Shown in pieces: positions 116-18,130 of a stretch of DNA of 64,000 nucleotides. The DNA is from an uncultured Gammaproteobacteria bacterium. GTDB taxonomy: Bacteria > Patescibacteriota > Microgenomatia > Daviesbacterales > UBA10151. The first letter of the stretch is position 1, and each line of letters begins with the position of its first letter. The translations under genes were made by a program, and so were the position numbers. Below the pieces are notes generated by a model. That model saw only the letters and a program-made list of their open reading frames with translations, made no database searches and was not told the DNA's origin. The DNA lies in contig CAZCNP010000003.1 of NCBI GenBank assembly GCA_964500725.1, positions 59,476 to 123,475 on the forward strand, written 5' to 3'.

Positions 116-439
116 ATGCATGGACTGACTTTCCAGTATTATCAAACTATTTATTCAATTTCTTTAAAAAGCAAAAAGTATCAGATAGGGAAACAAGGAT
201 ATGTCTATCATAAAATTAAAGAGCCAATCTTTTATAACCAGCTAGGTCTTATCAGTAATGGTAGATATACCATAGCGGATAAAGAACGCACTATCACAGA
301 TTGCCTTTATGTATTCCCAGGGATTGCCTTTGATAATTTAGAAGGGATTGACAAAGACAAACTGCTCACTTTATCTAAGATATATGATAATAAAAGACTA
401 GAAAAAGAGGTAAAAAAACTCATCACCTATGCTGGATAA
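116..439 (+). CDS. Putative AbiEi-like antitoxin/regulator, short form, partner of the downstream AbiEii gene
   Basis: 107-aa ORF overlaps the start of the downstream DUF1814 gene by 11 nt, a TA-like arrangement. It carries a 'TIADKERTITDCL' segment that resembles the conserved C-terminal motif of AbiEi antitoxins. The N-terminus may lie upstream of or beyond the window start. Confidence 0.4.
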   Translation: MHGLTFQYYQTIYSISLKSKKYQIGKQGYVYHKIKEPIFYNQLGLISNGRYTIADKERTITDCLYVFPGIAFDNLEGIDKDKLLTLSKIYDNKRLEKEVKKLITYAG

Positions 440-2081: not shown

Positions 2082-3461
2082 TTATATATTGGAATTTCGG
2101 GAACCTTCCTGAAAAAATTCTTTCCCGTTTAGTATCAACCAGGCCCATAATGGTATAAACTCAATTTTCTTACCCTCTATCTTTTTTACATCAGCATAGT
2201 TTTTAGTGAGCACTATTCCCTGATCGAGATTAAACTCACTCAGTCCCTCAACTAATCCCTCTGCCTCCCTATCATGCGGTTGATCGGTATAACTAACGTT
2301 TACAAATGATAAATTCGGGCTCATCACCACAAAATCTATCTCCCTTTTCCCCCTCCAGTAATATACTGCCGGGTTATTCCTCTTAAGCTCCATATAGACT
2401 ATATTTTCAGCGCATTGCCCGATATCCAGACGGGGAAGCGGTATGTTAAAGTTTCGCAACCCATTATCAACAACATAAATTTTTCTTGGCCGTTGAATAT
2501 CCTGAGTCTCTTTAGTTTTATAGGAAAAATGCCTGCTTTCAAAAAAAAGGTATGCTTTCTCGAAGTACTCAAGATATGATTTTACCGCATCCACTGATAA
2601 CTTTTGCGGCCGGCCTAAACTGCTATAGGTATGTGTTCTGGTAAAATCAGACATTATCTGGAGTCCTAGGACTTCTACCTCTTGAGCGTTCCGGATTGCA
2701 TTTGGCTTTAAAACATCACGGCTGATAATATCGGAATAATAAGCTGCTGCCAGTGTTTTTTTCACTTCCTCTTCCGGGGCTAATATAATTTCAGGATAGC
2801 CACCCTCAAACATATAATTTCCCAAATGGTGAAGGATAGTTGACATTCGGCTAAAATTAGCATCCTGAAGACTTTGTAAAGTATCTCCTCTGACATCTAC
2901 TTTGCGCATTAGAAGGTACTCATAAAAATTGAGGGGATATATATCAAGAACCACATTCCTGCCGGTTAACACCGTAGCTGATTCTGACTCAACCAGCGCC
3001 CGCCTGGATCCTGAAAGAATAAATTTGACAGGTTCCTTCCGTTCATACTTTGAAGCTATCCAGCGATTAAAGTCTTTTATTCCCTGAATCTCATCTAAAA
3101 AAAGATATACTTGTCCCTGAGGATCATATGTTTCCAGATAAAAATTATACAGATCATCTAAGAACTTCCATCCCAAGGAAAGATACTGCTGAGCCAAAAT
3201 ATCCTCTAAAAAGAGAAACAAAATGTTTCTAGCAGGAATGGTTTTTTCTTCCAGCAAATGCTTCACCATCTGTTGCATAAGCGTTGATTTTCCTGCCCGC
3301 CTCACACCGGTTAGAATCAGGACGTGGCGAATATCTAAAAGTTTTTTAAGCCTGGAAAGATACTTTTCTCTTGTCACAGTCCCGATCCAACCCCCTTTTT
3401 GAGGGTTAGTAAAATGAGGGTTCCAGGTATCAATTAATTTTTTCAATATTTCAGTATCCAT
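2082..3461 (-). CDS. AAA+ ATPase of the AAA_14/DUF4143 family
   Basis: Walker A 'LILTGVRRAGKSTLMQQ' and Walker B 'LFLDEIQ' are present. The 459-aa size is typical of DUF4143 ATPases. Confidence 0.8.
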   Translation of the reverse strand: MDTEILKKLIDTWNPHFTNPQKGGWIGTVTREKYLSRLKKLLDIRHVLILTGVRRAGKSTLMQQMVKHLLEEKTIPARNILFLFLEDILAQQYLSLGWKFLDDLYNFYLETYDPQGQVYLFLDEIQGIKDFNRWIASKYERKEPVKFILSGSRRALVESESATVLTGRNVVLDIYPLNFYEYLLMRKVDVRGDTLQSLQDANFSRMSTILHHLGNYMFEGGYPEIILAPEEEVKKTLAAAYYSDIISRDVLKPNAIRNAQEVEVLGLQIMSDFTRTHTYSSLGRPQKLSVDAVKSYLEYFEKAYLFFESRHFSYKTKETQDIQRPRKIYVVDNGLRNFNIPLPRLDIGQCAENIVYMELKRNNPAVYYWRGKREIDFVVMSPNLSFVNVSYTDQPHDREAEGLVEGLSEFNLDQGIVLTKNYADVKKIEGKKIEFIPLWAWLILNGKEFFQEGSRNSNI

Positions 3462-3588: not shown

Positions 3589-5418
3589 ATGTTTGCCCAG
3601 ATCCTTGCCATACTACTTACTACCAGCTACATACTACTAGCCAGTCCTGTATATGCCCAATCTGCAGCTCCTTCTGCAATACAGTCTACCATCTACAGTC
3701 TACCGACTACAGTAAGTCCTACCTCTCCTCTTTATACTGATCTGCTAGTTAATAATCTATTTCACTCCTTCTCTTGTATTGCTTTAGGGCAATCTGTGAT
3801 TGGACAGCCCTGCTTGACTTACCAGGTTACTCAAAATGCCCAGGGAGTGATTCAAAGTGTACCTATGCTTTCCCAAGTTAATACATCCGGAGGAGCTTTA
3901 GGGACAACCACTTCTTTAATTGGAGCATTATATACTCACCCTCCTGTTAGAACTGCTGATTATTTAGCTTCAGTTAGACAAAATTTTGGGATTGTAAAAG
4001 AAGCTAATGCTCAAGTAGTAGGCTCTGGGGCTCAAGTGTTAAATCCTATTTTAAGCCTCTGGCAGGTATCAAGAAATATTTCTTATGTAATTATGATCAT
4101 CATATTCTTAGTAATAGGACTAATGGTGATGTTTAGGAATAAAATTAACCCCCAAACAGTTATCACAGCTCAAGCAGCTTTACCAGGATTGGTAATTGGA
4201 CTGGTGATGATTACTTTTTCCTTCTTTTTTGCTGGTCTTATTTCTGATATGGCCTTTGTGGGAACTAATGTAGTAGGTTATTATTTTGTGGCAGCTGAAG
4301 GAAAATTAAGCGACTCAACTTTTCAAGACCAACTAAACCTATCACAGAAACTATCAGGCGCTAATATTTTAAACATTATGGGTCCACTCACAGGAATCCT
4401 TGATAATGGAGGCATCTTGCACCTTAACAATCTCGGCGGTGATATATCAAGATTTGCCAGCCTAATTTATGATAATTTAAGCAGCGCAGCACAAGGCGCT
4501 ATTCAGATGTTAGTATTTTGGCTCGCTGCTCAATTTATAGCTCCCATTATACCCACTGATGTTAGTACAAGCCCCTGGATGTTAATACTTAAACCAATAG
4601 TCGGCATAGTAGGAGGGGTAGCTGCAAACCTAGCCTTAGCCCCTCTACTGGGTTTATTCTTAAGTTTTGCTGCTGCTTTAGCCTTAGTCTATCAAATGTT
4701 GAAATTATTCTTTAGGTTAATTATGGCCTGGTTAACCATAATATTTTTGACCATTAGCGCTCCGTTCCAGTTCCTTTTTGCTTCTTTACCAGGCAGACAA
4801 GGAATAGCTACCAGCTGGATTTTACAGATGCTAGGTAATATTTTGATATTTCCAGCTGTTATCGCAGTAATTTATTTTGTGGCTTTCTTACTTGGCCCCC
4901 AAAAGTTCAGCGAGAATTGTCCCAAAGACAACTCTAACCCTAACCAGTGTCTAATCAAAATTTCCGCTGCCAACCAAATCAATAATGGATCATTAATATC
5001 TCCTGTATATGCAACTGATGGCAGAGACATTGTTGGAAGTAATGCTTTTCCTTTATTTGGAGGACTTGATTTAAGTTTTATGAGAATATTATTGGCTTTC
5101 GGAGCTTTAATGGCATTACCGAAAATTCCTGATTTAATAGTTAGTGCTGTAGGGAAGGCCGGACAGGCAGGACAAATGATTGGACAAGAAATTATGGCAG
5201 GTACTGGATTTGGTCAAAGATATACTCAAAGACAATTTGGAGCAGGAATTGAAACTGGCCAAGGTGTTATAAAAGGATCCATAGGTGAAACTACTGTTGA
5301 TGCTTATGGTAATGTAGTACTATCAAGGCAAGGAATACTTCGAAGAGGTGTGGGGTCAAGTATTCCATCAGCAGCAGGTGGTGCTAAAGGCGGAGGTAAA
5401 TGGATATGGAAACCATAG
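3589..5418 (+). CDS. VirB6/TrbL-like polytopic membrane protein (T4SS channel candidate)
   Basis: 609 aa with a signal peptide, a ~150-aa extracytoplasmic N-domain, at least 6 predicted TM helices and a Gly-rich C-terminal tail. It sits next to the pilin-like genes. Confidence 0.5.
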   Translation: MFAQILAILLTTSYILLASPVYAQSAAPSAIQSTIYSLPTTVSPTSPLYTDLLVNNLFHSFSCIALGQSVIGQPCLTYQVTQNAQGVIQSVPMLSQVNTSGGALGTTTSLIGALYTHPPVRTADYLASVRQNFGIVKEANAQVVGSGAQVLNPILSLWQVSRNISYVIMIIIFLVIGLMVMFRNKINPQTVITAQAALPGLVIGLVMITFSFFFAGLISDMAFVGTNVVGYYFVAAEGKLSDSTFQDQLNLSQKLSGANILNIMGPLTGILDNGGILHLNNLGGDISRFASLIYDNLSSAAQGAIQMLVFWLAAQFIAPIIPTDVSTSPWMLILKPIVGIVGGVAANLALAPLLGLFLSFAAALALVYQMLKLFFRLIMAWLTIIFLTISAPFQFLFASLPGRQGIATSWILQMLGNILIFPAVIAVIYFVAFLLGPQKFSENCPKDNSNPNQCLIKISAANQINNGSLISPVYATDGRDIVGSNAFPLFGGLDLSFMRILLAFGALMALPKIPDLIVSAVGKAGQAGQMIGQEIMAGTGFGQRYTQRQFGAGIETGQGVIKGSIGETTVDAYGNVVLSRQGILRRGVGSSIPSAAGGAKGGGKWIWKP

Positions 5419-5445: not shown

Positions 5446-8400
5446 CTACCGGCTCATTTTGTTGAACAACCATTTAGCCCTTGTCATCTCTCGTTTTGGA
5501 TCCAGTATGGTTTTTTCCTTAAGCCTTTTATACCATTGTAGCTCTCCCGGATACGCTTCCCCTCCGCCTCCCTCTGTTTCACTAATAAGCCAATCAATAT
5601 ACGCATTAAAGAATTGCTCCTCTGTATGCCTTGCACTGCCAGTATTTCTATCTTTTGCCAAAGCATTTAGTATCTCTACGTTAGGCTTATCGTCTTTGAG
5701 AACTTCCTTATTTTCCAGATTCAAAGCCCCTTGGGCATTTCTGGTGTCTGATTCCATAGTTCTAACCAGCTTCAGCACAGTCCATAATCTATCAAATGAT
5801 TCTAGTACTAAATTCATAAACTCAATTTCAGCGTTATAATCTTTGAATACTCCTGTCTCGTTTTTTTCCAATCTATCCAAGATTTCTTGTATTTTCCCTA
5901 CCCTCTCTGAATTATTAGTTGGTTTTTCAAACAATCCTTCTATACTAAACCCCTTTTCAGAATCAACATGACCAACTAGAGCACCATAAATCATATTACC
6001 AATCTTCATTTGCTCAACCCATTTAGTTATAGCAAATTGACCGGCTAATCTTTGTTCCGACATCTCTCCAACAGGATCTGCAAACATCTCAATTGCTCCT
6101 AAAACCCCTACCTGCCCCCATTGATCTGGCATCGAGGAAACATTCAAGGGCAAATTAGCAAGTTCCGCAGCATAACGTCTCGCAAATCTTTTAGGATTGC
6201 TGGCCACAAACTGTCTCATCCTAATAATAAATCTTGCTATACCGGAATAATCCTCCAAATTGTAACCTGTACGGAATTTAAAGATATTTCCATCTTTGGG
6301 CATGAAAGCCGCATTTAATTCTCTGACAATTCTCCAATGGCTATAGTTTGATGCCTCAACCGCAGCATCCGAAAGAAGTATCTCAGCCTGCTGAGCACCA
6401 GTACCCTCAGGCATATCAGTATCTTTAAGACTAGGCACCCTATTTAGGGTTGGATCCAAAATTAACCGAATATCAGCCAATTTTTCGTGCTGATCCTCCT
6501 CTGATTCCGGCTCTATCATTAAATCCGGCCTCAATAGCCTCATTCTGCGTCTTTTAGCTGCTTGCACAATATCTGGGTTTATAACCTGATGCCTATTTTC
6601 CGGCTGGTAACTTAAGTAGGAATGATTTAACCATTTGTTTAAAGGATTTTCCGGATCTGTAGCAGTCTCAAAATCTATTATTTCTTCCAGATCTCCATCT
6701 AAACCAATAACATCACCAAAATTAGGTGAATTTTTATCCATATCAAACTTAAGTTTCCCAAACTTAAGTTTAGCTTCATAACCATTAGTTTTTAGTTGTT
6801 GGATGGCAACTGCTCTGGCCTGATCAACTGCTTTTGTTCTAACCTCGGCTGAAGAGTTAGCAAACTGGATCTTAATCCTAGTTTCCACATATTGAATAAA
6901 CATCTCTGCCTCATAAACCGGTATATTATCAACAAACCTGCGCCCATTTCCGTCTTTCCTGTCAATAAAGAATACGCCTCCTCCTCTTCTGGCCTTTTCC
7001 CCTGTTGATCCTACCATTTGAAAAGCTGTAGCAAAATTGGCTTTTGAATGATCATATGCTTCCTCCCAAAACTTTTTATCCCTGTCAGTTAGACGTTTCT
7101 GGGCTATTAATTCATCTATTACATCAATAAGCTGATGTTTTTCTTTTCCATCATGAGGAAGCAATAAAGATTGAACTTTTCCAATAATTACCGATTTTCT
7201 AAGGGCGGGCGAAATTGTACGTAACTCGTCGTCATTCCAATCTCTGTATGTTTGATAATTAATTAGATGAGCATTGCCTGAATCAAATCCATTGTATAAA
7301 CTTTTAAACTCTTCCTTTGGTTGGTGAATACCTATTCTTACCAAATTAGCCGCAATGGCTTTCTCTCTGGCTTGCTCAGCCTCCTCCAGCTTCAACACCC
7401 TGATAGAGTTGGAACCGTATGCAGCTGACTCTACATCCCTTGGGTCATAATTTTTCATCACAACACCCATTCCCTCCTCAATCAAAATTCCTTTAATTTC
7501 AGTATGAAGGTAGTGTTGAGTAACAGTGTCATTTAGTAATTGCCCTCTTGATCCGCCTGGGTTATGCATCAGTTTAATCCTTGGATCATAATCAAATTTC
7601 CATAAATACGCACCAACCGCACCATTACCTGATCTGGCAACCCGTATCCATCTATCGGGGCCTTCGTCCATAGCCATCGCCATCAAAAACTGATGAGCAC
7701 TACTCATATTATAGGTTTCAAATGAATAATCGCCCCCAAATACAAACCCATGACCTTGTAGCTCTTGTCTTAATGCTGTACTAAACCCCTCATCCATATT
7801 TTCTGAAGTGGCTGCTTGACCAACCATTTGTGTAAAATTGTTGAAATGCTCGTAAAGCTCGTTAGGAGATTTACCCAAACGGCCTCCTGTTACCGCACTT
7901 AAGAAGCTATCAACTGCTCTACGAAACTGCTTTGGTGTTTTGGCAAGGATTTCATATGTTTTGGGCCAATGTCCAGGCCTCCAATGAGTTTGTGTGTCAC
8001 CTTCATCATCTATATTCTCACTAACACTAAATTCGCCTTCTATAGGATCAGGCCTCTCACCAGTAAGCATTCTCTCAAGAATATCGCAGGTTCGCTGACT
8101 ATAAGCCTCGGCAATTCCACGCAATGGAGCTGCTCGAGGATCTGTTCTGCGACTCCTTAAAAGCGCTTCAATACTCCCTCTAGCAAAATCCCTAACCCTT
8201 GTTAATTCTTCTTCTACTTGCTGCGGAGGGATATTGCCCTGAGTAATTTGTTTATAAAAGGAAGTAAAAAGGGCATCTGCTCTATCAAGTAAGCCAAAAT
8301 TTCTGGCCTCCTTAAACCAAGTAGCCATATCAACTTCAACCGTTTCTGTATTAGCATCATCTGCGTATTTCTCGAATAATACATTTAGTGATTCTGCAGG

Positions 8401-9123
8401 TAGGACTACCGGTCGCTCGCCTCGATCTCTCTGATTAATTCCAAGCTGATTAGTTTCTGATGATTCTCCTCTAGCTCTCCTCTCTAGCGCTTCTTTTATT
8501 TTATTATATATTCTCCTCGGATCCCAAGGATCCTGTTCGTCTCTTATATTTCTTACCCTGCGAAGTGCCCTGGTGTAATCTTGTAGATCTGCATAGAGTT
8601 GATCTAGGTAAGGACCATTTCTTTCATTATATATTTCAGGCTTGCCAACTGTAGATAGCAAACCACTCACCGTGCGATATCTCTCGGTGTAAGGTAGAGT
8701 TGTTTCCAACCTAAGAATCTCCCTAACAATTGCCCTGCCTCTTTCTGGACTGGTTTCCCATTCTGGACCTCTTTCTGGACCGTTCGGAGATTCTGGACCT
8801 CTTAGCCTATCACCCTCACCACCAACGGCTCCTTGCACAGGTAAGTCATCCTCATCTGACCCTCCGCCTATGTCAGGCATTATTCTTGCTACTTCTTTAC
8901 CAGTTAACGGATCAATAAAGCTAGTTTGACCTCCTTTAAGCGGATTGCTTGTATATTCCTTCGCCCTTCTCGGATCATATCCTTCTAAAGGAAGAAATCT
9001 TTGTCTTAGAACAGAGGATTGATGAGGGCCTGTTTCTACTGGTGTATTATGGGCATGCACTCCTTGAGAACCTATTTCTGAAGATAATCCACCTTCTGAC
9101 ATATTTATTTCTATTCTAGCCAT
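5446..9123 (-). CDS. Large hypothetical protein (1225 aa), no recognisable domain
   Basis: Long uninterrupted ORF with no TM segments and no Walker motifs. The N-terminal region is low-complexity with PERGPE-like repeats encoded by four TTCTGGAC(C) copies at 8743-8799. Confidence 0.7.
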   Translation of the reverse strand: MARIEINMSEGGLSSEIGSQGVHAHNTPVETGPHQSSVLRQRFLPLEGYDPRRAKEYTSNPLKGGQTSFIDPLTGKEVARIMPDIGGGSDEDDLPVQGAVGGEGDRLRGPESPNGPERGPEWETSPERGRAIVREILRLETTLPYTERYRTVSGLLSTVGKPEIYNERNGPYLDQLYADLQDYTRALRRVRNIRDEQDPWDPRRIYNKIKEALERRARGESSETNQLGINQRDRGERPVVLPAESLNVLFEKYADDANTETVEVDMATWFKEARNFGLLDRADALFTSFYKQITQGNIPPQQVEEELTRVRDFARGSIEALLRSRRTDPRAAPLRGIAEAYSQRTCDILERMLTGERPDPIEGEFSVSENIDDEGDTQTHWRPGHWPKTYEILAKTPKQFRRAVDSFLSAVTGGRLGKSPNELYEHFNNFTQMVGQAATSENMDEGFSTALRQELQGHGFVFGGDYSFETYNMSSAHQFLMAMAMDEGPDRWIRVARSGNGAVGAYLWKFDYDPRIKLMHNPGGSRGQLLNDTVTQHYLHTEIKGILIEEGMGVVMKNYDPRDVESAAYGSNSIRVLKLEEAEQAREKAIAANLVRIGIHQPKEEFKSLYNGFDSGNAHLINYQTYRDWNDDELRTISPALRKSVIIGKVQSLLLPHDGKEKHQLIDVIDELIAQKRLTDRDKKFWEEAYDHSKANFATAFQMVGSTGEKARRGGGVFFIDRKDGNGRRFVDNIPVYEAEMFIQYVETRIKIQFANSSAEVRTKAVDQARAVAIQQLKTNGYEAKLKFGKLKFDMDKNSPNFGDVIGLDGDLEEIIDFETATDPENPLNKWLNHSYLSYQPENRHQVINPDIVQAAKRRRMRLLRPDLMIEPESEEDQHEKLADIRLILDPTLNRVPSLKDTDMPEGTGAQQAEILLSDAAVEASNYSHWRIVRELNAAFMPKDGNIFKFRTGYNLEDYSGIARFIIRMRQFVASNPKRFARRYAAELANLPLNVSSMPDQWGQVGVLGAIEMFADPVGEMSEQRLAGQFAITKWVEQMKIGNMIYGALVGHVDSEKGFSIEGLFEKPTNNSERVGKIQEILDRLEKNETGVFKDYNAEIEFMNLVLESFDRLWTVLKLVRTMESDTRNAQGALNLENKEVLKDDKPNVEILNALAKDRNTGSARHTEEQFFNAYIDWLISETEGGGGEAYPGELQWYKRLKEKTILDPKREMTRAKWLFNKMSR

Positions 9124-9271
9124 ATCATTCCTTTCCTAGGAAATTCTATGACTAATTCCAGCATAGAACTTCCGAAATTAAATGTCAAAACATTTGCATC
9201 TTAGCAGTCAATTACAAAATGCGCTTGATTTAAAACTGAGAAAATCCTGACAATATTAGTGCTAAATTATG

Positions 9272-9604
9272 TTATGCAGCTTTCTGAAAAAAAGGCCTTG
9301 ATATAGAAATCATCCCTTTTGTACGACATTGACGGCCAGGGTGCACACCTCGATAACATTCAGGACATCTAGGTCTTCTCATTTTTTTTCTTCTTAACCT
9401 CTCTTTTCCTCTATCATCACCTATTGATAATAAATTGCTTTTTGTAACCTCTTGGTCAACCCCCACTCTATAAGGAAGCTTTTCTTCTTTTACATATGCA
9501 ATCAAATCTGTATTGAATCTGGGAATAAGTGGCGATACAATGCCGCAACTAACTGGCAATTTTATTAATTCTTGAGCAGCTTGAGGAATAATTTCTTTTG
9601 TCAT
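9272..9604 (-). CDS. Small basic protein with a C-terminal zinc-ribbon-like CPEC…C motif
   Basis: 110-aa ORF lying between the 1225-aa and 581-aa genes on the same strand. Its C-terminus reads 'RRKKMRRPRCPECYRGVHPGRQCRTKG'. Confidence 0.4.
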   Translation of the reverse strand: MTKEIIPQAAQELIKLPVSCGIVSPLIPRFNTDLIAYVKEEKLPYRVGVDQEVTKSNLLSIGDDRGKERLRRKKMRRPRCPECYRGVHPGRQCRTKGMISISRPFFQKAA

Positions 9605-9658
9605 ACCAACTTTATAACAAAAGTGTATGATATCCTACCTTTTTTAAAATGACAATAA

Positions 9659-11404
9659 CTAACACTGCCTTACTGCAGAGCATTTTGGACACCTCTCTCC
9701 TCTTCTTACCACACATCTTATTTCTGCCCCACAGGCTCCACATTTTATACAATAATCTTTATCTTTAGAAAACAAACCTGAAATCCCTCGAACTACATCT
9801 GAAGACAAACCACTTGTAACTGCTCCTACCCCTCCGGCAGAGAAATCTCCTGAAAAACCACAACCTACCATAACTGCCTTTACTATCATCTTGCCATAAT
9901 AATGCAATTCTTCTTGGAAACTTCTAAGAACCTCAGCCCCTTTTTGAACTGCGTTTTTAACAATTCCTATCCCTCTTTTTACAAGGTTACTTTCCGTTAC
10001 CTGCTCTCTTAGACTATCAAACTTGTTTATAACTGCTTTGTAAGCCTCTCTTACTTTTTCTGGATTAAAGAATTTAGCACAAATAGTCTCTGCATAATAC
10101 ACAATAAATAATCTACACTCCTCTAAATAATACTTAGTCTTCTCTTCCTCTGTCGCTCCTTCTTGTTTTTTAAATTCTGTTGCAAAAATCTGCTGGACGC
10201 TCCTAGTATCTGACTGATCAATATAAATAGGGTTTATTTTAAAATATAGGTCTATACTCTCCTCCATTGGAGCACTTTCTGAATTAAAGTAATTTCTATC
10301 AAGGCTGGTTGCAATTTTTTTGTACGCTTCATAATTTACCCCTGAGGCAAACCTAGTCATTACCACCACAACCTTGCCTGTAGTAGGATCAATAGTCTTT
10401 GTAAAAATATCAACGAAATTATCTGTAAATGCTGTGCCTTTTTTAAGCCCTGGTCCAGAAATAATAACTGCTTTAGACTCTAGAGGTACCTGCGGATCAA
10501 ATAATCCCTTCATTACTTTTTCCCAGCCTTTAAACTCCTCTGCCTCACGTTCGTAATCCACAAATCCCTTTTGTTTGCTATAAACCAAACCTCTTTGCAA
10601 AACCACATCAAAAGATTCTCCAGGAAATTTTGGGTTATATATTTTACCCTTGCTATCTTGGTAATAAACAACTGTACTTTCTGCTGTATGAGCCCGTTCG
10701 TATAAATGTCTTCGCTTATCTTCAATTATCCCCTGCCTTACTGCTTGCCTTTCTGCATCTGTTTTAGCACGCTCATATCTGGCTCTATCTACTGCCGGAT
10801 CGTACGCCAACCTTGGCCCTCCATATATCCCAAGCGCTTTATGCAACTGCTCAACTCTTCTTAAATCTTTACTAAAATCAATAGAACCAGATGAAGGAAA
10901 AATAGTTTTATCTTCTGCTATATTCTGTGTTATCTGGAGCTCTGCAGGGGGCGAAATTCGGTCAGCAGGTCGAGCAAGAATCAATGTGCTATCAAAAGGA
11001 GAAATTTGTTTATTTATGCTATCTAAACTTGGTAAGGTAATATCTTCATCTGATAAAGGTCTCGTATTTTCTAATGCAGAATTCAGGGAAAAAGTAGTTC
11101 TGGGTTTTACTAAAACTACAGTTGATCTCAAATCTACGTCTGGTTTAAACTTATCGCCTGGATCTACCTTAGTTAAAGTACTAATTTTTCTGGAATCTTT
11201 AAGTTTTAAACCGGTAGTTAAGGTTGTAAAATTTGGAGGTGCTTCTACTGTCATATTACTCCTGCTCGGGATAAAAATTGTGGTCGGTCTCCTGACTTTA
11301 CAGTTGCGGCACAGTCTCTGAATTACACAGAGTTCCCTTTTTGTTTCCTTTCTTGCTTTAAGACAAGACGAAACACCACAATTTGTATAATACCAGGATA
11401 ACAA
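9659..11404 (-). CDS. Hypothetical protein (581 aa) with Cys-rich N- and C-termini (zinc-ribbon-like)
   Basis: The N-terminus is 'CGVSSC…CVIQRLCRNC' and the C-terminus is 'CIKCGACGAEIRCVVRRGERCPKCSAVRQC'. No other recognisable motif was found. Confidence 0.6.
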   Translation of the reverse strand: MLSWYYTNCGVSSCLKARKETKRELCVIQRLCRNCKVRRPTTIFIPSRSNMTVEAPPNFTTLTTGLKLKDSRKISTLTKVDPGDKFKPDVDLRSTVVLVKPRTTFSLNSALENTRPLSDEDITLPSLDSINKQISPFDSTLILARPADRISPPAELQITQNIAEDKTIFPSSGSIDFSKDLRRVEQLHKALGIYGGPRLAYDPAVDRARYERAKTDAERQAVRQGIIEDKRRHLYERAHTAESTVVYYQDSKGKIYNPKFPGESFDVVLQRGLVYSKQKGFVDYEREAEEFKGWEKVMKGLFDPQVPLESKAVIISGPGLKKGTAFTDNFVDIFTKTIDPTTGKVVVVMTRFASGVNYEAYKKIATSLDRNYFNSESAPMEESIDLYFKINPIYIDQSDTRSVQQIFATEFKKQEGATEEEKTKYYLEECRLFIVYYAETICAKFFNPEKVREAYKAVINKFDSLREQVTESNLVKRGIGIVKNAVQKGAEVLRSFQEELHYYGKMIVKAVMVGCGFSGDFSAGGVGAVTSGLSSDVVRGISGLFSKDKDYCIKCGACGAEIRCVVRRGERCPKCSAVRQC

Positions 11405-11445
11405 CCTTAGTCAAGACACCTATTCATAAGGTTGCTTAGTGAGGG

Positions 11446-12126
11446 TTATTTCTTAACTACACTCATACCTAATTGCTTTGCTTTCTCCTTATAAAATTCT
11501 TGCAGTTCTTTTAAAGAAAGAGGCACTAACATTTTTGGCAAATCCTCAAACTTTTCTACCTTTAGGAAGTCGCTTCCCAACCATATTAAATCTAGTTCTA
11601 TTCTGAATTTCTCTTTGACAGCATATATCAAGTCCCACAAAGTAAATTCTTTTAAAAGAAAGTACAAATCTATAAAATCTTTAACTTCATTTCTATTAAC
11701 AATAGTTTGTAATTTATTGGCAGCAATATCAAATAAACTATCTACTTGTATCCCTGAAACAGTTAATCCCTTTTTTAATCTCTTATACGGATAATAAGCA
11801 AAATCCACTTTGATTTCTACTTTATTGGCCCTAAGAAGCTCATAGATTCTAGTATATTCTCTTTGCGTGAGCCTAATCTGCAATTTTTTGAAGGCTGCTA
11901 TCTTCTGGATAAAACGGTCAGGGATATCTTTATCGAAATCAGTTTCAGAAAAAAAATCCAGATCTTCAGAATCACGATGCTTAAGATAAGCACTGCTTAA
12001 TGCTGTACCGCCAGTGAAATAAAATTGTTTAATTAATTTGTTGTTTTTAGCAAACTCAGTAAGAATGAATTTTTGCAGAGGAGTTAAAACTAAATCTTCT
12101 AGCAACAAATTATTTACTTTCCCCAT
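11446..12126 (-). CDS. AbiEii/DUF1814-family nucleotidyltransferase (second copy)
   Basis: 'FYFTGGTALSSAYLKHRDSEDLDFFSE' is the same signature seen in the 429..1103 gene. Length is 226 aa. Confidence 0.75.
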   Translation of the reverse strand: MGKVNNLLLEDLVLTPLQKFILTEFAKNNKLIKQFYFTGGTALSSAYLKHRDSEDLDFFSETDFDKDIPDRFIQKIAAFKKLQIRLTQREYTRIYELLRANKVEIKVDFAYYPYKRLKKGLTVSGIQVDSLFDIAANKLQTIVNRNEVKDFIDLYFLLKEFTLWDLIYAVKEKFRIELDLIWLGSDFLKVEKFEDLPKMLVPLSLKELQEFYKEKAKQLGMSVVKK

Positions 12127-12320
12127 ATTAGAAACTCAAATAATCTTTTTCTTGAAGGCTCAAGATTTAGATCATGCCAATGTTTTTTAACTTCTTTTAG
12201 ATCAATTTTTTCTTTATCAGAAGGATAAATCCCATAATTAATTTGTCTTTCTAAAATAAGCAGTCTGCCGCTTTTGGTTTTCTTTAACTTGTTAATATCA
12301 TAATCCCAGATAAAAGGCAT
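12114..12320 (-). CDS. Putative cognate antitoxin/partner of the AbiEii gene (68 aa)
   Basis: It overlaps the upstream end of the AbiEii gene by 13 nt on the same strand. No recognisable motif was found. Confidence 0.3.
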   Translation of the reverse strand: MPFIWDYDINKLKKTKSGRLLILERQINYGIYPSDKEKIDLKEVKKHWHDLNLEPSRKRLFEFLIWGK

Positions 12321-12484: not shown

Positions 12485-13504
12485 ATGGAAGCACATCCTA
12501 TCCCGCAAAATGTGACCTCATTCCAATTTAAACTGGTTGGGGATATGACTTTAAAACAATTTGTTTATTTGGCAAGTGGTGTTGGCATGGCTTACCTAAT
12601 TTTTGTATTGTTTGCTGCCAATCTCCCTTTTATTTCTTGGCCTTTTATTATTCTTTTTACTCTGTTGGGGGTAGCTTTTGCTTTTTTACCAATAGAATCC
12701 AGGCCTTTGGATCATTGGCTGGCAGCTTTTCTGACGGCAATCTATTCTCCGACTAAAAGAATTTGGAAGAAAAATGGCAAAAATTACAAAGAAGATGCGT
12801 TATATGCAAGCCGTCTGGTGACATATTTATCAGGACCAGCAAAAGAAGCCCCTCTTGCTATAAAAACAGCAGAGACAGCTCCGCAAACTGCTGATATTTC
12901 TAAATTACCTACTAAAGAAGAGTTACAAAAAACAGTTGATTTAGCCCGCCAAGCCCAACAGCTGCAGATGAAAATAATTCAAACTGAAAGAGCTTTATCC
13001 CAAATTAAAGATCAGGCCCAAAAACCCACCCCAGTACCAATTGATTATGGCCAAGAGGTTAACAAAATCCTGACTGATTTGCAAAGCCTGGTGAGTCAAG
13101 CCTCTGTTATTAAAGAACAAATCCAATCAATTCAAAAGCCCCAAACAGGAGGAGCAAATGTGACTCCTCCACCATTTCCTAAAGAAAAAGTTAAAGTAGT
13201 TATTCCTATCAAGCCTAAACAAACTACAGTAGCTTTAACCACATTCCCAAATGTCCTCAATGGTATTGTCAAAGATGCTCAAAACAATTACTTAGAAAGT
13301 GTAGTGGCAGTTATTTACAATAAAGACGGACTGCCTGTCAGAGCTTTAAAAACCAACAAATTAGGCCAATTTACAGGATCTACCCCACTGCCAAATGGAA
13401 CCTATAACCTTGAGCTTGAAAAAGATAATTTTTCTTTTGATGTCCTGCAAATTGAACTAAGCGGGACAGTTCTACCGCCATTGATGATTACAGCCAAAAC
13501 ATAA
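12485..13504 (+). CDS. PrgI/VirB3-like T4SS membrane protein with a long coiled-coil and beta-sandwich C-terminal extension
   Basis: The N-terminus 'IPQNVTSFQFKLVGDMTLKQFVYLASGVG' plus two TM helices matches the PrgI-family start (…f.GLtlrQf…). A Pro/Gln-rich coiled coil and a ~90-aa C-terminal domain follow. Confidence 0.55.
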   Translation: MEAHPIPQNVTSFQFKLVGDMTLKQFVYLASGVGMAYLIFVLFAANLPFISWPFIILFTLLGVAFAFLPIESRPLDHWLAAFLTAIYSPTKRIWKKNGKNYKEDALYASRLVTYLSGPAKEAPLAIKTAETAPQTADISKLPTKEELQKTVDLARQAQQLQMKIIQTERALSQIKDQAQKPTPVPIDYGQEVNKILTDLQSLVSQASVIKEQIQSIQKPQTGGANVTPPPFPKEKVKVVIPIKPKQTTVALTTFPNVLNGIVKDAQNNYLESVVAVIYNKDGLPVRALKTNKLGQFTGSTPLPNGTYNLELEKDNFSFDVLQIELSGTVLPPLMITAKT

Positions 13505-13507
13505 ATT

Positions 13508-14245
13508 ATGAACACAACCCAAGGCCATCTGGCCATTGCTGACATTTTTGAAAATATCCTCATCTTAAAAGACGGTGGTGGAGCCTTGGTTTTACAAGTA
13601 TCTGCTGTTAACTTTGGCTTACTTTCATCAAGAGAGCAAATTGCCATTATTTCCAGCTTTGCCCAAATGCTAAATTCCTTATCTTTTTGTATTCAAATCG
13701 TTATTCACTCAGAAAGACTGAATATATCTTCTTACTTGCAACTTTTGGATAATGCCAAAAAAGCTCAAACCAATCCCTTACTTTCTCAGATGATCAGTGA
13801 GTATAAACAATTTATTCAAACTACTATAAAAGAAAATGATGTTTTGGATAAAAAATTTTACCTGGTTATCCCCCTTTCCAGCCTGGAACTAGGATTAACC
13901 CCTTCAAAAGAGAATTTACAACAAAAAATCAAAACTGTGCTTTTACCAAGAAGGGATCAAGTAATTAGGCAATTAAGTAGAGTTAGTCTTAGGGCCACTC
14001 AACTTACCAGACAAAAACTAATTGAGCTTTTTTATGATATTTATAATGGTGAATTTTTGGAAACCCCGGTTGTAGAGCCAGTTAACCCTGAACAACTCAC
14101 TGTTAGGCTTAATTCCCCACAGCAAAATATCGAGAAGCAACCAGTTGTAGCAGCGCCACCTCCTCCTCAAGCTGCTCAAGCAGAACCTATGATAACTCAA
14201 AACACCAGAACCCACCCTTTTGTGGTAGAGGAGCTGGAAGGGTAA
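13508..14245 (+). CDS. VirB4/ConE-like N-terminal domain segment, separated from the ATPase ORF by an in-frame TAA
   Basis: 'ILILKDGGGALVLQVSAVNFGLLSSREQIAIISSFAQMLNSL…IQIVIHSERLN' resembles the N-terminal region of Gram-positive VirB4-family ATPases. It is in the same frame as 14249..16006, with a single TAA plus one codon between them. Confidence 0.5.
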   Translation: MNTTQGHLAIADIFENILILKDGGGALVLQVSAVNFGLLSSREQIAIISSFAQMLNSLSFCIQIVIHSERLNISSYLQLLDNAKKAQTNPLLSQMISEYKQFIQTTIKENDVLDKKFYLVIPLSSLELGLTPSKENLQQKIKTVLLPRRDQVIRQLSRVSLRATQLTRQKLIELFYDIYNGEFLETPVVEPVNPEQLTVRLNSPQQNIEKQPVVAAPPPPQAAQAEPMITQNTRTHPFVVEELEG

Positions 14246-14248
14246 TTT

Positions 14249-16006
14249 ATGAATATTTTTGATAAACTTAAAAAGGCAAAACCAGTTGAGGAGGCCAAAC
14301 CTCAGTTAACCTTAGAAGATGCTATTGCTCCTTCAGAAATTGAAGTTGATTTTAAACATTTAAGGCTAAATAACCACTTTTTCAAAACCTATTTTGTGTC
14401 TGGCTACCCCAGATTTGTTGATCCAAACTGGCTAGAACCTTTAATCTCCTTTGATCACTCGCTTTTGATCTCCATGTTTATTTACCCTTCTGGCTCCCAA
14501 GGAGTCTTGGATGAGTTAAAACGTAAAATTGCTGAGATGGAAGCAACCATCCAAACAGACCTGGAACGGGGCAGAGCCATAGATCCAGCAGTTGAGGTAG
14601 CTTTGGAAGATGCCAGAGGGCTGCAAGACCAACTGGTAAGAGGGGTAGAGAGATTTTTCCAATTTGCTCTCTATATTAGTGTGCCAGCCTCATCTTTAGA
14701 TGAGCTTCGCAACACCTCAAAATTGATTGAGTCTACTTTAGCCTCACTATCTATTACTGCCAAGCAAACCACCTTACAAATGGAAAATGGTTTTAAATCC
14801 ACCCTGCCTCAAGGCACAGATTTATTAAACTTGACCCACAATATGGATACTACCTCTTTGGCAACCACTTTTCCCTTTGCTTCATCAGAGCTAACTGCCA
14901 ATGAAGGAATTATGTATGGCATCAACCAACATAATGATTCTTTAATTCTTTTTGATCGATTCAGTTTAGAGAACGCAAACTCGGTTATATTCGCCAAAGC
15001 TGGAAGCGGTAAGTCCTATTTAGTCAAGCTGGAAGCTTTGAGATCTTTAATGTTTGGCACTGAAATTATCGCCATTGACCCTGAGCAGGAATACTTGCCC
15101 TTAGCCCAAGCTGTTGGGGGAGAGTATATTAACTTTTCCCCCTCCAGCCCAGCCAGGATTAATCCTTTTGACATGTCAGGCATTGCCATCCCTGGAGAAA
15201 ATGAGCTAGGCAGAAAAATCCTCTCTTTAACTGTTTTTTTAAAGATTATTTTGGGCAACTTAACTGCCCAGGAAGCAGCCATTTTAGACAGAGCTTTAAA
15301 GCAAACTTACTATCAAAAAGGCATTACTGATGATCCTAAAACCCAAAATAAAGTGCCTCCTTTGATGGAAGACCTGTATAAAGTTTTAATTGGGATGGAG
15401 GAAGGACCTGCTATGGACTTGGCTGCCAGGTTGGAAAGATTTATTAAAGGATCTCTGGTGGGAATTTTCTCAGCTCAATCAAATATTGATCTTTCCAACT
15501 CCTTTACAGTTTTTTCAGTCAGGGATTTACCAGACCAGCTAAGACCTCTGGCTATCCATCTGATTTTGGACTATGTGTGGACCAAGGTCAGAAGCAAGCT
15601 CAAAAAAAGGATTTTAATTGTAGATGAGGCTTGGTATTTGATGAGAAACCAGGATTCTGCTGACTTTTTGGTAGATATTGCCAAAAGATCAAGAAAATAT
15701 TATTTAGGACTCACAACAATAACTCAAGATGTGGAGGACTTTTTGGCAACTGAAAGAGGCAAAGAGATTATCTCCAACTCTTCTATTCAGATCCTTTTAA
15801 AACAAGCTCCAGCTTCAATTGATTTGCTAACCCAAGTTTTTGATCTATCAGAAGGGGAACAAAGGCTTTTAATGTCTGAGGGTATTGGTGAGGGAATCTT
15901 TTTTGCAGGCAATACTCATGTGGCTATTGGTGTGGTGGCCTCCCCCAAAGAACACCAACTAATCACCACCAATCCAGCTGAAATCTTGGCAAGACAAAAC
16001 AAATAA
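14249..16006 (+). CDS. VirB4/TrbE/ConE-family type IV secretion ATPase (Walker A/B part)
   Basis: Walker A 'FAKAGSGKSYLVK', Walker B 'ILIVDEAWYL' and an upstream 'YFVSGYPRFVDPNWLEPL' VirB4 N-domain motif are present. Confidence 0.85.
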   Translation: MNIFDKLKKAKPVEEAKPQLTLEDAIAPSEIEVDFKHLRLNNHFFKTYFVSGYPRFVDPNWLEPLISFDHSLLISMFIYPSGSQGVLDELKRKIAEMEATIQTDLERGRAIDPAVEVALEDARGLQDQLVRGVERFFQFALYISVPASSLDELRNTSKLIESTLASLSITAKQTTLQMENGFKSTLPQGTDLLNLTHNMDTTSLATTFPFASSELTANEGIMYGINQHNDSLILFDRFSLENANSVIFAKAGSGKSYLVKLEALRSLMFGTEIIAIDPEQEYLPLAQAVGGEYINFSPSSPARINPFDMSGIAIPGENELGRKILSLTVFLKIILGNLTAQEAAILDRALKQTYYQKGITDDPKTQNKVPPLMEDLYKVLIGMEEGPAMDLAARLERFIKGSLVGIFSAQSNIDLSNSFTVFSVRDLPDQLRPLAIHLILDYVWTKVRSKLKKRILIVDEAWYLMRNQDSADFLVDIAKRSRKYYLGLTTITQDVEDFLATERGKEIISNSSIQILLKQAPASIDLLTQVFDLSEGEQRLLMSEGIGEGIFFAGNTHVAIGVVASPKEHQLITTNPAEILARQNK

Positions 16007-16021
16007 TGATAAGTTAAACTT

Positions 16022-18130
16022 ATGGCTGATATACACTTTTTAAATGTTTTAGAATTTGAACGGTTTAAATCGTTGCTGTCTGGAAAAACCCTAACTTTAG
16101 CAGAAAAAATTAGCGCCTTAGACACCCTGCGCGAAAAATTACCTGATTTATTTGCCAATTTAACAGCTGGACTATCACCCCAACAACTAAAAGATAATCT
16201 ATTTTTAATCAGGCATTTAACAAACTCACGCAACATAAACAAAATTAAGCTAGCTTTAAGAAAAGAATCATCCCTTTCTCCAGCCCAACAACTTGCGTTA
16301 GAACTAGCTTTGGAAGAAGCTGCTACAAAAGAACCTTTAGCAGAGCAGGCTACACCAACAGCAGCTCAAACTGAAGAAGCTCCTTTACCCTCCCAACCTA
16401 ACCCTTCTGCTTCAAGCGGATTTGGCGGGATGCCTTCTGCTGGAATGTCTTCTTCCGCCTCAGGTCGGGTTTTTGTAAAAGAAGCACCAACAAGTGGCAA
16501 GGCAGGCGGAACAGGTCAAGGAACAGCAGCCACCAATAAAATAAACCGAGCAAATGTGGGTAAAACAATCCAGTTTCCAAAAGCTCCGGCAAGTTTTGTA
16601 AACACTGCTAAAAATTTTAGCTCAAGTTCTCAGATATTTACCAAAAGATGGGGAGGCAGGATATTTAATGGGCTAACCCAAGTTGCCTTGCCTGGCGGAG
16701 CCAGCCTATTAGGCAAAACAGGACTGGGAGCTATCAATCATGGTGGAAATTTTATTAGTAATTTATCAAACACAAGGCTGCGAATGGTAAATAATATCAA
16801 AGGAGCTGGATCAGGATTGTCTTCTTCTTTGCAAGGAGGCAAAAAATTTGCCTTAGCTTCTGTCTTAGCTTTTTTTCTACTTTTAGGTATTGCTATTTCT
16901 GGAGCTACCAATGGCACTACTCCAACAAGTGAGGCTGCTCCAATTAGTACAGGTGGAACAGATATTTCCAACTGTAAATTTACCAGATCAGGCAAACCCC
17001 AACCTATCAAAAGCTCCATTCTTTCAGGCTGGATTAGTTCTACAGCAGTTTCAGCTGGAATTCCTTCGCAAATCTTGGCAGGTATTGCAATGCATGAGAA
17101 TCCAAATTTCCTTCAAACTAAAGAAAATACAGATGAAGAAATTAAAACTAACCGCTTTTGCAATTCTGGAGCAGACTTTTGTGTAAACCAGGATAAAAGC
17201 AAAAATATTCACATGGGCAAATGCACTGATGCAGAAATTGCAGCAGGCAATAGCAACGCTAGCGCTATTGGGTTAATGCAAATTGTTGATGTACATTATC
17301 CAGAAGTGGATTTATGTAATATTCAAACAAATATTGCCTTAGCAGCCCAAATATTTAAAGGCAAGCTTGGAAGCGGATCAATAAATAGTGAGGCAGATCT
17401 TAAGAAAGCTGTTTGTTTATACTATGGAGCGCAAGATGATACAGAGTGCACATATGAGGAGAAATACCACTATGGCCAAGAGGTGTGGAATGATTACCAA
17501 AACTGTCAAACTACCTCTGCTGTAGCTATTTTGCCTGCCCCTGTAAACGGGGATCACAAAAGTTGGGTAAATGGAAACTTTAATATTGATGTATCAGAAC
17601 TACCAGATCAGTATGCATTGTGGGCATACGAAGTTTTAAATGCCTCAACAAGCAAAGCTCCTAAGTTTCGAGGTCTTATTTATAACAAACCAACTAAGGT
17701 TGTCCCTGCAACAGAAGGCAGCTATACCAGTGGGGATACAATCAATATCAGAGCTGGTTATGATGCTAACTTTTTCAAACAAATATTTATTCATGAGCTA
17801 GGACACAGAATAAAAGGTGCTGCTGGAACAACTTCTCCTCAATGCGGAGGAGAAACCCTAGAACAAATACAAGATAGAGAAAAATACTTAACTTATTATG
17901 CTGAAAATGCTACTCCAGCCAATGTAAAAAGCCCTGCTTGCGGCAGCAATGATCAAGCAACCAAAAGTGATGAGGACTTTGCTGAATCCGTATCTTATTA
18001 TATTAATAATATTCCTGAACTTAATTATGGTTCAGACTGCTCAACATATGGCACAGTAAATCCCTATAATCGAACCGCCCAATCCCGTCCTTTGCATAAA
18101 GCATATATTCAGTGTCTTTTAGGTCCTTAG
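16022..18130 (+). CDS. Membrane-anchored cell-wall hydrolase, VirB1-like lytic transglycosylase domain fused to an HExxH zinc-metallopeptidase-like domain
   Basis: A Gly/Ser-rich cytoplasmic N-region is followed by one TM helix (FALASVLAFFLLLGIAISGA). The SLT-like motif reads '…AMHENPNF…AIGLMQIVD'. 'IFIHELGHRIKG' supplies an HExxH motif. The extracellular part is Cys-rich. Confidence 0.6.
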   Translation: MADIHFLNVLEFERFKSLLSGKTLTLAEKISALDTLREKLPDLFANLTAGLSPQQLKDNLFLIRHLTNSRNINKIKLALRKESSLSPAQQLALELALEEAATKEPLAEQATPTAAQTEEAPLPSQPNPSASSGFGGMPSAGMSSSASGRVFVKEAPTSGKAGGTGQGTAATNKINRANVGKTIQFPKAPASFVNTAKNFSSSSQIFTKRWGGRIFNGLTQVALPGGASLLGKTGLGAINHGGNFISNLSNTRLRMVNNIKGAGSGLSSSLQGGKKFALASVLAFFLLLGIAISGATNGTTPTSEAAPISTGGTDISNCKFTRSGKPQPIKSSILSGWISSTAVSAGIPSQILAGIAMHENPNFLQTKENTDEEIKTNRFCNSGADFCVNQDKSKNIHMGKCTDAEIAAGNSNASAIGLMQIVDVHYPEVDLCNIQTNIALAAQIFKGKLGSGSINSEADLKKAVCLYYGAQDDTECTYEEKYHYGQEVWNDYQNCQTTSAVAILPAPVNGDHKSWVNGNFNIDVSELPDQYALWAYEVLNASTSKAPKFRGLIYNKPTKVVPATEGSYTSGDTINIRAGYDANFFKQIFIHELGHRIKGAAGTTSPQCGGETLEQIQDREKYLTYYAENATPANVKSPACGSNDQATKSDEDFAESVSYYINNIPELNYGSDCSTYGTVNPYNRTAQSRPLHKAYIQCLLGP

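Follow-up and report, generated by a model that had tools for sequence, protein, structure and literature searches.

What does a bacterium from the candidate phyla radiation (CPR) place under the control of a vitamin B12 riboswitch next to a type IV secretion system (T4SS)? The question is raised by two co-directional genes on the minus strand of contig CAZCNP010000003.1 (assembly GCA_964500725.1), within a stretch of 64,000 nucleotides (positions 59,476 to 123,475) that is referred to here as the window. An earlier note on this DNA had described open reading frames (ORFs) of 110 and 581 aa, each ending in a zinc-ribbon-like cysteine cluster, and both ORFs were found where it had placed them on the minus strand. 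The product of the larger gene is in fact a 531-aa protein, 100% identical to the NCBI hypothetical protein HY383_01890 of Candidatus Daviesbacteria bacterium (P0001), for which the NCBI start likewise gives 531 aa. Daviesbacteria are members of the Microgenomates group of the Patescibacteria. It can be said with high confidence that the control of the 531-aa gene by a B12 riboswitch and the C-terminal ribbon of its product are both real. The role proposed here is that the protein is produced under B12 scarcity alone and has a functional tie to the T4SS-like apparatus of CPR bacteria. This role is put forward tentatively, as plausible yet short of probable.

The riboswitch occupies the 5' untranslated region (UTR) of the 531-aa gene (11265..11395, minus strand). 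Its match to the Rfam model RF00174 (clan CL00101) covers model positions 1-189 and reaches 61.2 bits (E 1e-12), well over the gathering score of 31.5. The aptamer is of the short class, and a 71-position internal stretch of the model that is missing from it is one which we take to be a peripheral extension of the cobalamin riboswitch. Core and B12-box sequences (GCCGCAACUGUAA and AGUCAGGAGACC) are present, and an alignment of the upstream DNA of relatives contains a conserved block resembling a B12 element. The elements of the relatives scored best with the short AdoCbl-II model; the short cobalamin riboswitch class tends to favour methyl- or aquocobalamin. The 3' end of the window element lies 2 nt before the Shine-Dalgarno (SD) sequence and 11 nt before the ATG, on the same strand as the gene. 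In the minimum-free-energy fold, the SD sequence and the AUG are paired with the 5' flank of the aptamer. A promoter-like site at 11414..11387 was considered as the riboswitch promoter and rejected because its -10 element falls within the aptamer.

The riboswitch also bears on where the protein begins. The larger ORF had been read from a TTG at 11404. The protein is taken to be 531 aa long because the riboswitch stops 2 nt before an AGGAG and the true ATG is at 11254. This ribosome-binding site (11263..11259) and start codon (11254..11252), read from the sequence, together span 11252..11263 on the minus strand, with the AGGAG 4 nt before the ATG. Their context CCCGAGCAGGAGYAATATG is kept in three of the relatives' loci (L001, L004 and L007), and the NCBI start lies 50 codons 3' of the TTG. 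The first 50 residues of the 581-aa ORF are absent in 14 of 14 homologues (33-70% identity). The true coding sequence is therefore given as 9659..11254 (minus strand), as indicated by the NCBI annotation, the homologue alignment and the ratio of nonsynonymous to synonymous substitution rates (dN/dS). The earlier note had also seen a second cysteine cluster, 'CGVSSC…C…CRNC', at the N-terminus of the large protein. This claim did not hold: the cluster is encoded by codons 1-50 of the spurious, TTG-started extension (11255..11404, minus strand), which is cobalamin riboswitch DNA. Since the extension overlaps the riboswitch and is absent from homologues, the cluster is the riboswitch read in frame and not protein. 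Control by the B12 riboswitch, the main feature of the locus, had escaped the earlier note. The same over-extension artefact was seen in L011, where the called N-terminus of protein P0002 (718..830) overlaps the cobalamin riboswitch core (732..746). A practical lesson is that gene callers and readers of ORFs repeatedly translate this riboswitch as a Cys-rich N-terminus, as in the window ORF and P0002.

How widespread is the protein? It is one of a large, uncharacterized protein family of the Patescibacteria. A profile of 15 close sequences was searched against 1.84 billion cluster representatives and returned at least 343 clusters (50% identity) at E<=1e-3 and 141 at E<=1e-30. The members listed are 357-648 aa long, mostly about 360-520 aa, and match from end to end. 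The A4-profile homology search of the protein database returned the same 15 proteins again and none further. The 531-aa protein has no match in Pfam, NCBIfam, PHROG or PADLOC, ten diverse family members likewise have none in Pfam, and a tblastn search of phage and plasmid collections returned nothing. Frame disruption and poor conservation in relatives were the grounds on which the earlier note would have doubted the ORFs, and both ORFs prove to be coding and to be held under purifying selection. Compared with L011, dN/dS is 0.24 for the 531-aa gene and 0.34 for the 110-aa gene, the latter with dS near saturation.

The association of the riboswitch with the gene is a property of the whole family. 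A cobalamin-riboswitch element was found upstream of the family gene in all 13 independent lineages examined. Matches of the cobalamin clan above the gathering score, on the same strand and directly upstream of the gene, were obtained in L007 (56.4 bits), L010 (44.8 bits), L004 (44.6 bits), L001/L003 (40.7 bits) and L013 (37.2 bits). Four further matches to the clan fell short of the gathering score: L016 reached 42.9 of the required 50 bits and L008 35.0 of 36.5, and L019 and L014 scored 33.6 and 32.1 bits. The match in L015 (31.9 bits) stands before a 303-aa gene that itself precedes the family gene, and that in L011 is partial and below the gathering score, the searched stretch being cut. 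No covariance-model match was obtained upstream of the family gene in L020, where the upstream region has GGGGAA…CUGUGCCGCAA and an intervening hairpin with a large insertion. In 17 of the 20 loci there is a single copy of the core motif YTRTGCCGYWAMNGT, always on the strand of the gene and 46-256 nt upstream. The three loci without YTRTGCCGYWAMNGT are two 5'-truncated ones and L013, which has the Rfam match instead. The hairpin assigned to P4 shows compensatory changes at 4 of its 5 pairs among 9 lineages. A second cofactor riboswitch was observed in L019, where a flavin mononucleotide (FMN) riboswitch (9479..9602, plus strand; 89.6 bits) lies upstream of an EamA-family transporter gene, directly 3' of the family gene. 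Two cofactor riboswitches therefore stand side by side next to a T4SS operon in that locus.

The C-terminal cysteine cluster is the second firm feature (9662..9751, minus strand; zinc ribbon plus terminal C531), as indicated by the alignment, the model and weak profile matches. As the earlier note had observed, the protein ends in a cysteine cluster; its end is KDYCIKCGACGAEIRCVVRRGERCPKCSAVRQC followed by the stop codon, and 7 Cys fall in the last 30 residues. In 531-aa numbering, cysteines are found at positions 380, 392, 465, 502, 505, 508, 514, 522, 525 and 531. The binomial probability of seven Cys is about 7e-11 (27 residues in the test; background 0.51% from 36 other window ORFs), and the cluster is not a product of chance, since it is conserved in relatives. 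Conservation was read from an alignment of 127 diverse relatives. The family-wide pattern is C505-x2-C508-x13-C522-x2-C525-x5-C531, and no position in it is conserved in fewer than 90% of the sequences. The Daviesbacteria subgroup has two additional cysteines, C502 and C514, which are not conserved family-wide and give it a ferredoxin-like CxxCxxC spacing. Among near-full-length members, the last residue is Cys in 85 of 158, and a Cys falls within the last three residues in 109 of 158. The cluster also behaves as the zinc ribbon that had been proposed: two CxxC knuckles 13 residues apart are near-invariant, and the only PDB sequence matches of the family profile are classical zinc ribbons (eL43/L37ae at E 0.003, RPB12 weakly). 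A search of PDB sequences with the 531-aa protein by itself went no further than weak ribbon matches. Curated zinc-ribbon models stayed below cut-off (Pfam Zn_Ribbon_1 at E 0.065 and A2L_zn_ribbon at E 0.034), as did Pfam Fer4 (16.5 bits against a cut-off of 21.1, E 0.0074), which was matched by the window spacing C502-x2-C505-x2-C508-x5-C514. In the predicted structure, the ribbon appears to have four short strands, given as single-residue strand marks, at a predicted local distance difference test score (pLDDT) of about 80. The ribbon exists in at least half a dozen sequence types that vary from clade to clade.

The ribbon is part of a fixed family architecture, which consists of a variable disordered N-terminus, an alpha/beta core of ~300 aa, a Cys hairpin, a Gly/Ser tether and the C-terminal four-Cys zinc ribbon. 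Residues 1-117 (10904..11254, minus strand) are variable and predicted to be disordered, with pLDDT <50 in both models; they cannot be aligned among relatives, and no signal peptide or transmembrane segment was predicted in them. The conserved alpha/beta core with a PAS-like subdomain covers residues about 120-470 (9845..10897, minus strand). E186, C465, C505 and C525 are invariant in the 127 sequences, and R187, R221, G222, R236, E237, E240, G243, S266, D282, R301, P342, G466, C508, C522 and C531 are at least 90% conserved. The invariant G-C465-G (9857..9865, minus strand) was placed by the alignment and the model at the tip of a beta-hairpin, in the family motif GCGxSGGF, and a Gly/Ser-rich tether follows. 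Two motifs stand ahead of the ribbon within this tether, namely GCGxSGGF and, for most of the clades, NSVxxFG. The AlphaFold2 model made with the 127-sequence alignment has a mean pLDDT of 77, with residues 1-111 disordered, about 120-420 at >90, the C465 hairpin at >90 (strands at residues 461-468), the tether at <50 and the ribbon at about 80. The confident model of the 531-aa protein has no fold match in the PDB. A glycyl-radical reading of the GCG hairpin was rejected, as GCG[LMF]S lacks the Arg and the aromatic residue of RVxG[FYW], and a lipobox reading of VGC was rejected because the motif is internal and there is no signal peptide.

The 110-aa gene (HY383_01895; 9272..9604, minus strand), recognized as an ORF with positional homologues, lies 54 nt 3' of the 531-aa gene. 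No terminator-like site was found between the two, and a promoter-like match is present upstream of the 110-aa gene. Its product is small, basic (isoelectric point (pI) 10.1) and fast-evolving. The earlier note had given this protein a terminal ribbon of cysteines. The Cys motif CPECYRGVHPGRQC is indeed present, as a CX2CX4HX4C (CCHC) sequence with zinc-knuckle spacing at residues 80-93 (9326..9367, minus strand); it is not terminal, since 17 residues follow it to '..FFQKAA', and it holds three Cys and one His, not four Cys. Pfam zf-CCHC models stayed below threshold, the best being zf-CCHC_5 (E 0.052, 13.7 bits against a cut-off of 27). A database search with the protein returned only the identical protein, and Pfam, NCBIfam, PHROG and PADLOC gave no match to it. 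Positional homologues were found in L011 (127 aa, E 3e-16, frame kept), L004 (121 aa) and L007 (136 aa); none was found in L001-3 or L008/9, and the gene is present in 4 of 7 close lineages. The conserved part of these proteins is R-x-P-R-C followed by a Cys/His cluster, of which the spacing differs in L011, L004 and L007. A further observation concerns the extreme C-terminus. Endings of the form '..(K)KAA' or '..xAA' occur in the 110-aa protein (9272..9280), in L007 (12186..12596), L010 (7083..8333) and L019 (12630..17447), and in 14 of 158 members of the 531-aa family. Among 215 ORFs of at least 100 aa in the window and 12 loci, AA endings were found in four, all of them T4SS-neighbourhood proteins. 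From their sequence, such KAA/AA endings resemble an ssrA-like degron or may represent a shared C-terminal signal.

In what setting are these genes found? The earlier note had placed them in a secretion locus, and this is borne out by the adjoining T4SS-like operon, recognized with Pfam and found in the same order in relatives. The operon (12485..18612, plus strand) encodes PrgI, a TraC/TrsD-like protein, a VirB4-type P-loop ATPase, a 702-aa protein and a Big_5 protein. It adjoins dnaN (18609..19724, minus strand) and dnaA (20349..21692, minus strand), which are annotated in the window with a Holliday-junction-resolvase-like gene between them, and this gene order is the same in relatives. The locus is the T4SS cluster that PMC12102498 describes for Patescibacteria, close to oriC, without a relaxase and MPF_FATA-like. 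Profiles of T4SS components (VirB1-11, VirD4, Prg/Trs) in Pfam and NCBIfam gave no match to the 110-, 531- or 1225-aa proteins.

T4SS genes were found within 10 kb of the family gene in 9 of the 12 lineages with enough flanking sequence (window, L001, L004, L007, L008, L010, L014, L019 and L020). In close relatives, the family gene is always divergent from prgI–traC-like–virB4 and is accompanied by a co-directional large gene (about 1,170-1,226 aa) and then by a convergent 609-aa-type membrane protein gene and a pilin array. Toxin-antitoxin modules (PIN/PhdYeFM, AbiEi/Eii, HicB) have repeatedly been inserted between the family gene and the large gene, an interval that is empty in L008. At about 25% identity, the family gene is again divergent from prgI in L019. 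In L014 and L020 (also about 25% identity), a homologue of the 609-aa protein is encoded immediately 3' of the family gene and co-directionally (phmmer E 1.5e-39 and 1.6e-36), followed by a convergent ORF of 1,067 or 1,255 aa. The linkage of the family gene to T4SS neighbours has therefore outlasted rearrangement. The VirB4-type ATPase of L010 (1402..4953, minus strand; 1183 aa) was observed to contain Intein_splicing and LAGLIDADG domains, and an intein is therefore present in it.

Downstream of the gene pair in the window, the 1225-aa protein is encoded co-directionally (5446..9123, minus strand) by a fast-evolving ORF. It has no Pfam, NCBIfam, PHROG, PADLOC or PDB sequence match. A survey of relatives showed that the 110- and 531-aa genes are not always found together, nor always with the 1225-aa gene, of which recognizable homologues are found only in L001-3, L008/9 and L011. 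A five-lineage alignment and a promoter scan defined a conserved region upstream of the 1225-aa gene (9160..9251, minus strand), with a block GTCAGGATTTT..AGTTTTAAATCAAGCGC (9251..9221) and TTGACA-N17-TATGCT (9188..9160). After this promoter-like site, a conserved 5' leader, GGAATTAGTCATAGAATTTCC..GGAAAGGAA, is common to the five lineages. The gene's own upstream block, promoter-like site and leader, kept in five lineages, suggest that it is transcribed independently and is possibly regulated. The convergent 609-aa polytopic membrane protein (3589..5418, plus strand) has no Pfam match and is, from its sequence, a candidate VirB6 analogue. Beyond it lie an AAA_14 ATPase gene and then T4SS_pilin genes (Pfam).

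Between the T4SS operon and the riboswitch, an AbiEii toxin-antitoxin module (11446..12320) is inserted, and relatives are without such an insert at this position. It consists of the AbiEii toxin gene (11446..12126, minus strand; Pfam and PADLOC AbiEii matches) and, upstream of and overlapping it, a 68-aa ORF known from its translation (12114..12320, minus strand). PADLOC defence models matched the AbiEii and AAA_14 (PDC-S01) proteins nearby and none of the 110-, 531- and 1225-aa proteins. Toxin-antitoxin and defence-type genes are dense in the window: two AbiEii modules, an MNT/HepT pair and two AAA_14/DUF4143 ATPases are found at 429..1103 (plus), 2082..3461 (minus), 11446..12320 (minus), 21772..22589 (plus) and 46226..47407 (minus). 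The AAA_14 ATPase at 2082..3461, the one of the two that was scanned, matched the PADLOC candidate PDC-S01. Further along the window, a SAM-I/IV riboswitch (RF01725; 39258..39398, plus strand; 44.7 bits against a gathering score of 41.1) lies directly 5' of a 125-aa ORF (39426..39803, plus strand) that has no Pfam match. Close by are genes for a PfkB kinase and, at 42291..43547 on the minus strand, an S-adenosylhomocysteine (SAH) hydrolase. In a 1601-aa ORF (47588..52393, plus strand), an N-terminal Peptidase_M48 segment is the sole recognizable part.

How could the riboswitch, the ribbon and the T4SS-like apparatus be connected? When corrinoid is plentiful, the aptamer would fold, the adjoining ribosome-binding site and AUG would be sequestered, and the 531-aa protein would not be made; the 110-aa gene, 54 nt downstream, might be silenced together with it. 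Corrinoid binding would stabilize P1, which could extend into a helix of UCCUG (11398..11394) with CAGGA (11264..11260) of the ribosome-binding site and of GUUGU with AUGAC of the start codon, as drawn in the minimum-free-energy fold. This extended helix would act as a translational OFF switch, so that the protein would be made when B12 is scarce. When corrinoid runs short, as it might in a cell that has yet to engage a host, the protein would act in the cytoplasm at or through the T4SS-like apparatus and would help to obtain corrinoid or another host-derived supply. The tethered metal ribbon may serve as a docking or hand-over module while the conserved core binds a ligand or partner, and the 110-aa protein may be an optional basic, CCHC-containing accessory of the same interval. 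In its broadest form, the proposal is that CPR bacteria, which are unable to make B12, use a relaxase-less T4SS-like machine to take corrinoids or other goods from the host, with this family as an adaptor or effector induced by B12 starvation. This broad form is quite unlikely to be correct. If true, it would provide the first riboswitch-controlled T4SS-linked factor, and the corrinoid level would be the cue for whether the host supplies the cell.

Several observations weigh against a T4SS-linked role. No B12-binding motif, T4SS domain or secretion signal was detected in the family protein by Pfam, NCBIfam and PHROG scans, and its many invariant charged residues and invariant Cys resemble an enzyme active site more than a docking protein. 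In L013, L015 and L016, the 10 kb around the family gene hold no T4SS gene, although each of the three has the riboswitch. The family gene stands in a glycolysis neighbourhood in L013 and, in L016, inside a cell-division and cell-wall cluster between murG and ftsW. As the riboswitch is kept without a T4SS in these three lineages, B12 control is the more fundamental link, and the T4SS adjacency could be inherited synteny near oriC. Six of the riboswitch matches (L008, L011, L014, L015, L016 and L019) are under the Rfam gathering score, and the fold that sequesters the SD sequence is no better than that of shuffled sequences (z = -1.24). To judge from cysteine spacing, the metal could be Fe-S instead of Zn in the Daviesbacteria subgroup. 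Enzymatic readings, whether of a backup enzyme or of corrinoid processing, explain the enzyme-like invariant residues better, but not the T4SS adjacency.

How do the competing explanations compare? A T4SS-linked factor made at low B12 is ranked first. It fits the association with the riboswitch and that with T4SS genes, an N-terminus that is disordered and variable, and a ribbon that can be exchanged. It is followed by a backup enzyme and then by corrinoid processing and a generic targeting or nucleic-acid-binding module. A B12-independent backup enzyme, in the manner of metE or nrdDG/nrdAB, would use the Cys465 hairpin as its active site and the ribbon and terminal Cys as a swinging redox or metal arm. 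Among single genes, metE is a classic target of short cobalamin riboswitches, and an enzyme of this kind would agree with the universal riboswitch of the family, with the stand-alone gene in the non-T4SS contexts of L013 and L016, and with about a dozen invariant polar residues and an invariant Cys in a confidently folded core. The SAH hydrolase of the window also means that homocysteine has to be dealt with. However, the protein shows no similarity to MetE, NrdD, NrdA or any Pfam or NCBIfam enzyme family, its fold is neither a triosephosphate isomerase (TIM) barrel nor a ribonucleotide reductase (RNR) barrel, and it has no invariant His or open metal site. The T4SS adjacency (9 of 12), the disordered N-terminus and the repeated swapping of ribbon type would be left unexplained. 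A backup enzyme is considered somewhat unlikely. It is a step less probable that the protein processes corrinoids, for example as a new adenosyltransferase, as a dealkylase or as a cobalamin reductase; its Cys-rich domain would then be a redox module with Fe-S or Zn, or a Cys would be the cobalt ligand. Salvage and adenosylation genes are common in B12 regulons, riboswitch control would be expected, and an Arg-rich invariant set would suit a nucleotide or corrinoid ligand. In the Daviesbacteria subgroup, the CIxCGACG spacing is like that of a 4Fe-4S motif (Fer4 of Pfam, E 0.0074), but it depends on C502 and C514, which the family as a whole does not conserve. The protein matched none of the CobA, PduO, EutT, CblC and PduS families, and the T4SS adjacency is again not accounted for.

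The earlier note had favoured ribbons that serve as recognition or targeting modules or as nucleic-acid-binding elements. They would involve no B12 chemistry, and the riboswitch would be only a nutritional or host-proximity cue. Ribbons that are kept while their type is swapped repeatedly are what a generic handle would show, and the C-terminal regions are basic (pI 11.4 for the C-terminal half of the 110-aa protein, 8.8 for the ribbon). The recurrence of '..KAA' tails in both families and the T4SS neighbourhood point the same way. Yet of the two ribbons that the large protein was said to have, one is an artefact of reading RNA as protein, and the motif of the 110-aa protein is not terminal, varies in spacing and belongs to a gene absent in close relatives. 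No nucleic-acid-binding domain was detected with Pfam, and the locus has no coupling protein or relaxase to receive such a signal (Pfam scan; PMC12102498). This explanation is judged improbable, to the same degree as corrinoid processing. There remains the thought that the ORFs are non-coding or arose by chance. It draws on the first 50 codons of the 581-aa ORF, which are indeed non-coding, and on the lack of any database relative of the 110-aa protein beyond itself. The at least 343 family clusters, full-length conservation and dN/dS of 0.24 refute it for residues 51-581. A positional homologue of the 110-aa ORF (E 3e-16) has kept the reading frame, at a dN/dS of 0.34. The probability of non-coding or chance ORFs is negligible.

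The T4SS-like apparatus of Patescibacteria is conserved and essential and is without relaxases or nearby coupling proteins (PMC12102498), and it is for this reason that its purpose is in question. The locus joins this question to another, namely how cofactor auxotrophs of the CPR obtain and sense B12. Here, a riboswitch of a known ligand class controls a widespread, unannotated family that keeps company with T4SS genes. It also offers a tractable handle through RNA-ligand binding, a B12-dependent reporter, and metal or corrinoid binding by a soluble protein of ~400 aa.

How does the locus compare with known systems? Mycobacterium tuberculosis depends on its host for B12, and its gene ppe2 belongs to a family of secretion-system substrates. 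A riboswitch for B12 that precedes ppe2, the function of which is uncertain, is described in PMC11260477. Both cases have a B12-sensing 5' UTR element beside the translation start, with an OFF logic that is proposed for the 531-aa gene. Unlike ppe2, the 531-aa gene encodes an unrelated protein without a PPE domain, its neighbour is T4SS-like and not a type VII secretion system (T7SS), and the riboswitch association is family-wide (13 of 13 lineages) instead of being confined to one locus. By analogy, the ppe2 switch may be regarded as a partial precedent. The surrounding genes are those of a Patescibacteria MPF_FATA-like T4SS cluster near dnaA (PMC12102498), with PrgI, TrsD/TraC-like and VirB4 proteins, a pilin array, proximity to dnaA/dnaN and no relaxase or coupling protein nearby. 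The text of PMC12102498, its supplement aside, does not mention riboswitch, cobalamin or zinc; its unnamed 'CPR profiles' may include the family. Literature searches brought up no paper that connects cobalamin riboswitches with the CPR or with T4SS.

The protein modules can likewise be set beside known ones. Classical C4 zinc ribbons (eL43/L37ae, RPB12, eS27) share with the C-terminal cluster two CxxC/CPxC knuckles 13-17 residues apart and, if the modelled strands are right, short hairpins, a likeness that is weak (profile E 0.003-0.3, below any family threshold). Unlike these, the ribbon described here is a C-terminal appendage on a Gly/Ser tether, has a fifth and usually terminal Cys, and varies in subtype by clade. 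The 110-aa protein has the exact CX2CX4HX4C of a retroviral-type CCHC knuckle within a very basic segment, but its homologues differ in spacing or Cys order and Pfam stays below threshold. Class II (B12-dependent) RNRs carry a flexible C-terminal Cys4-zinc tail with additional terminal Cys, thought to carry reducing equivalents to the active site. The Cys-rich C-terminal zinc tail and the link to B12 would make these enzymes an analogy only, since the 531-aa protein has no sequence or fold relation to them and its core is not an RNR barrel. In summary, the riboswitch and the zinc ribbon are elements of known kinds, and the protein family is a newcomer among the families of B12 regulons. The chance that the locus marks a categorically new, cofactor-gated use of a T4SS is modest.

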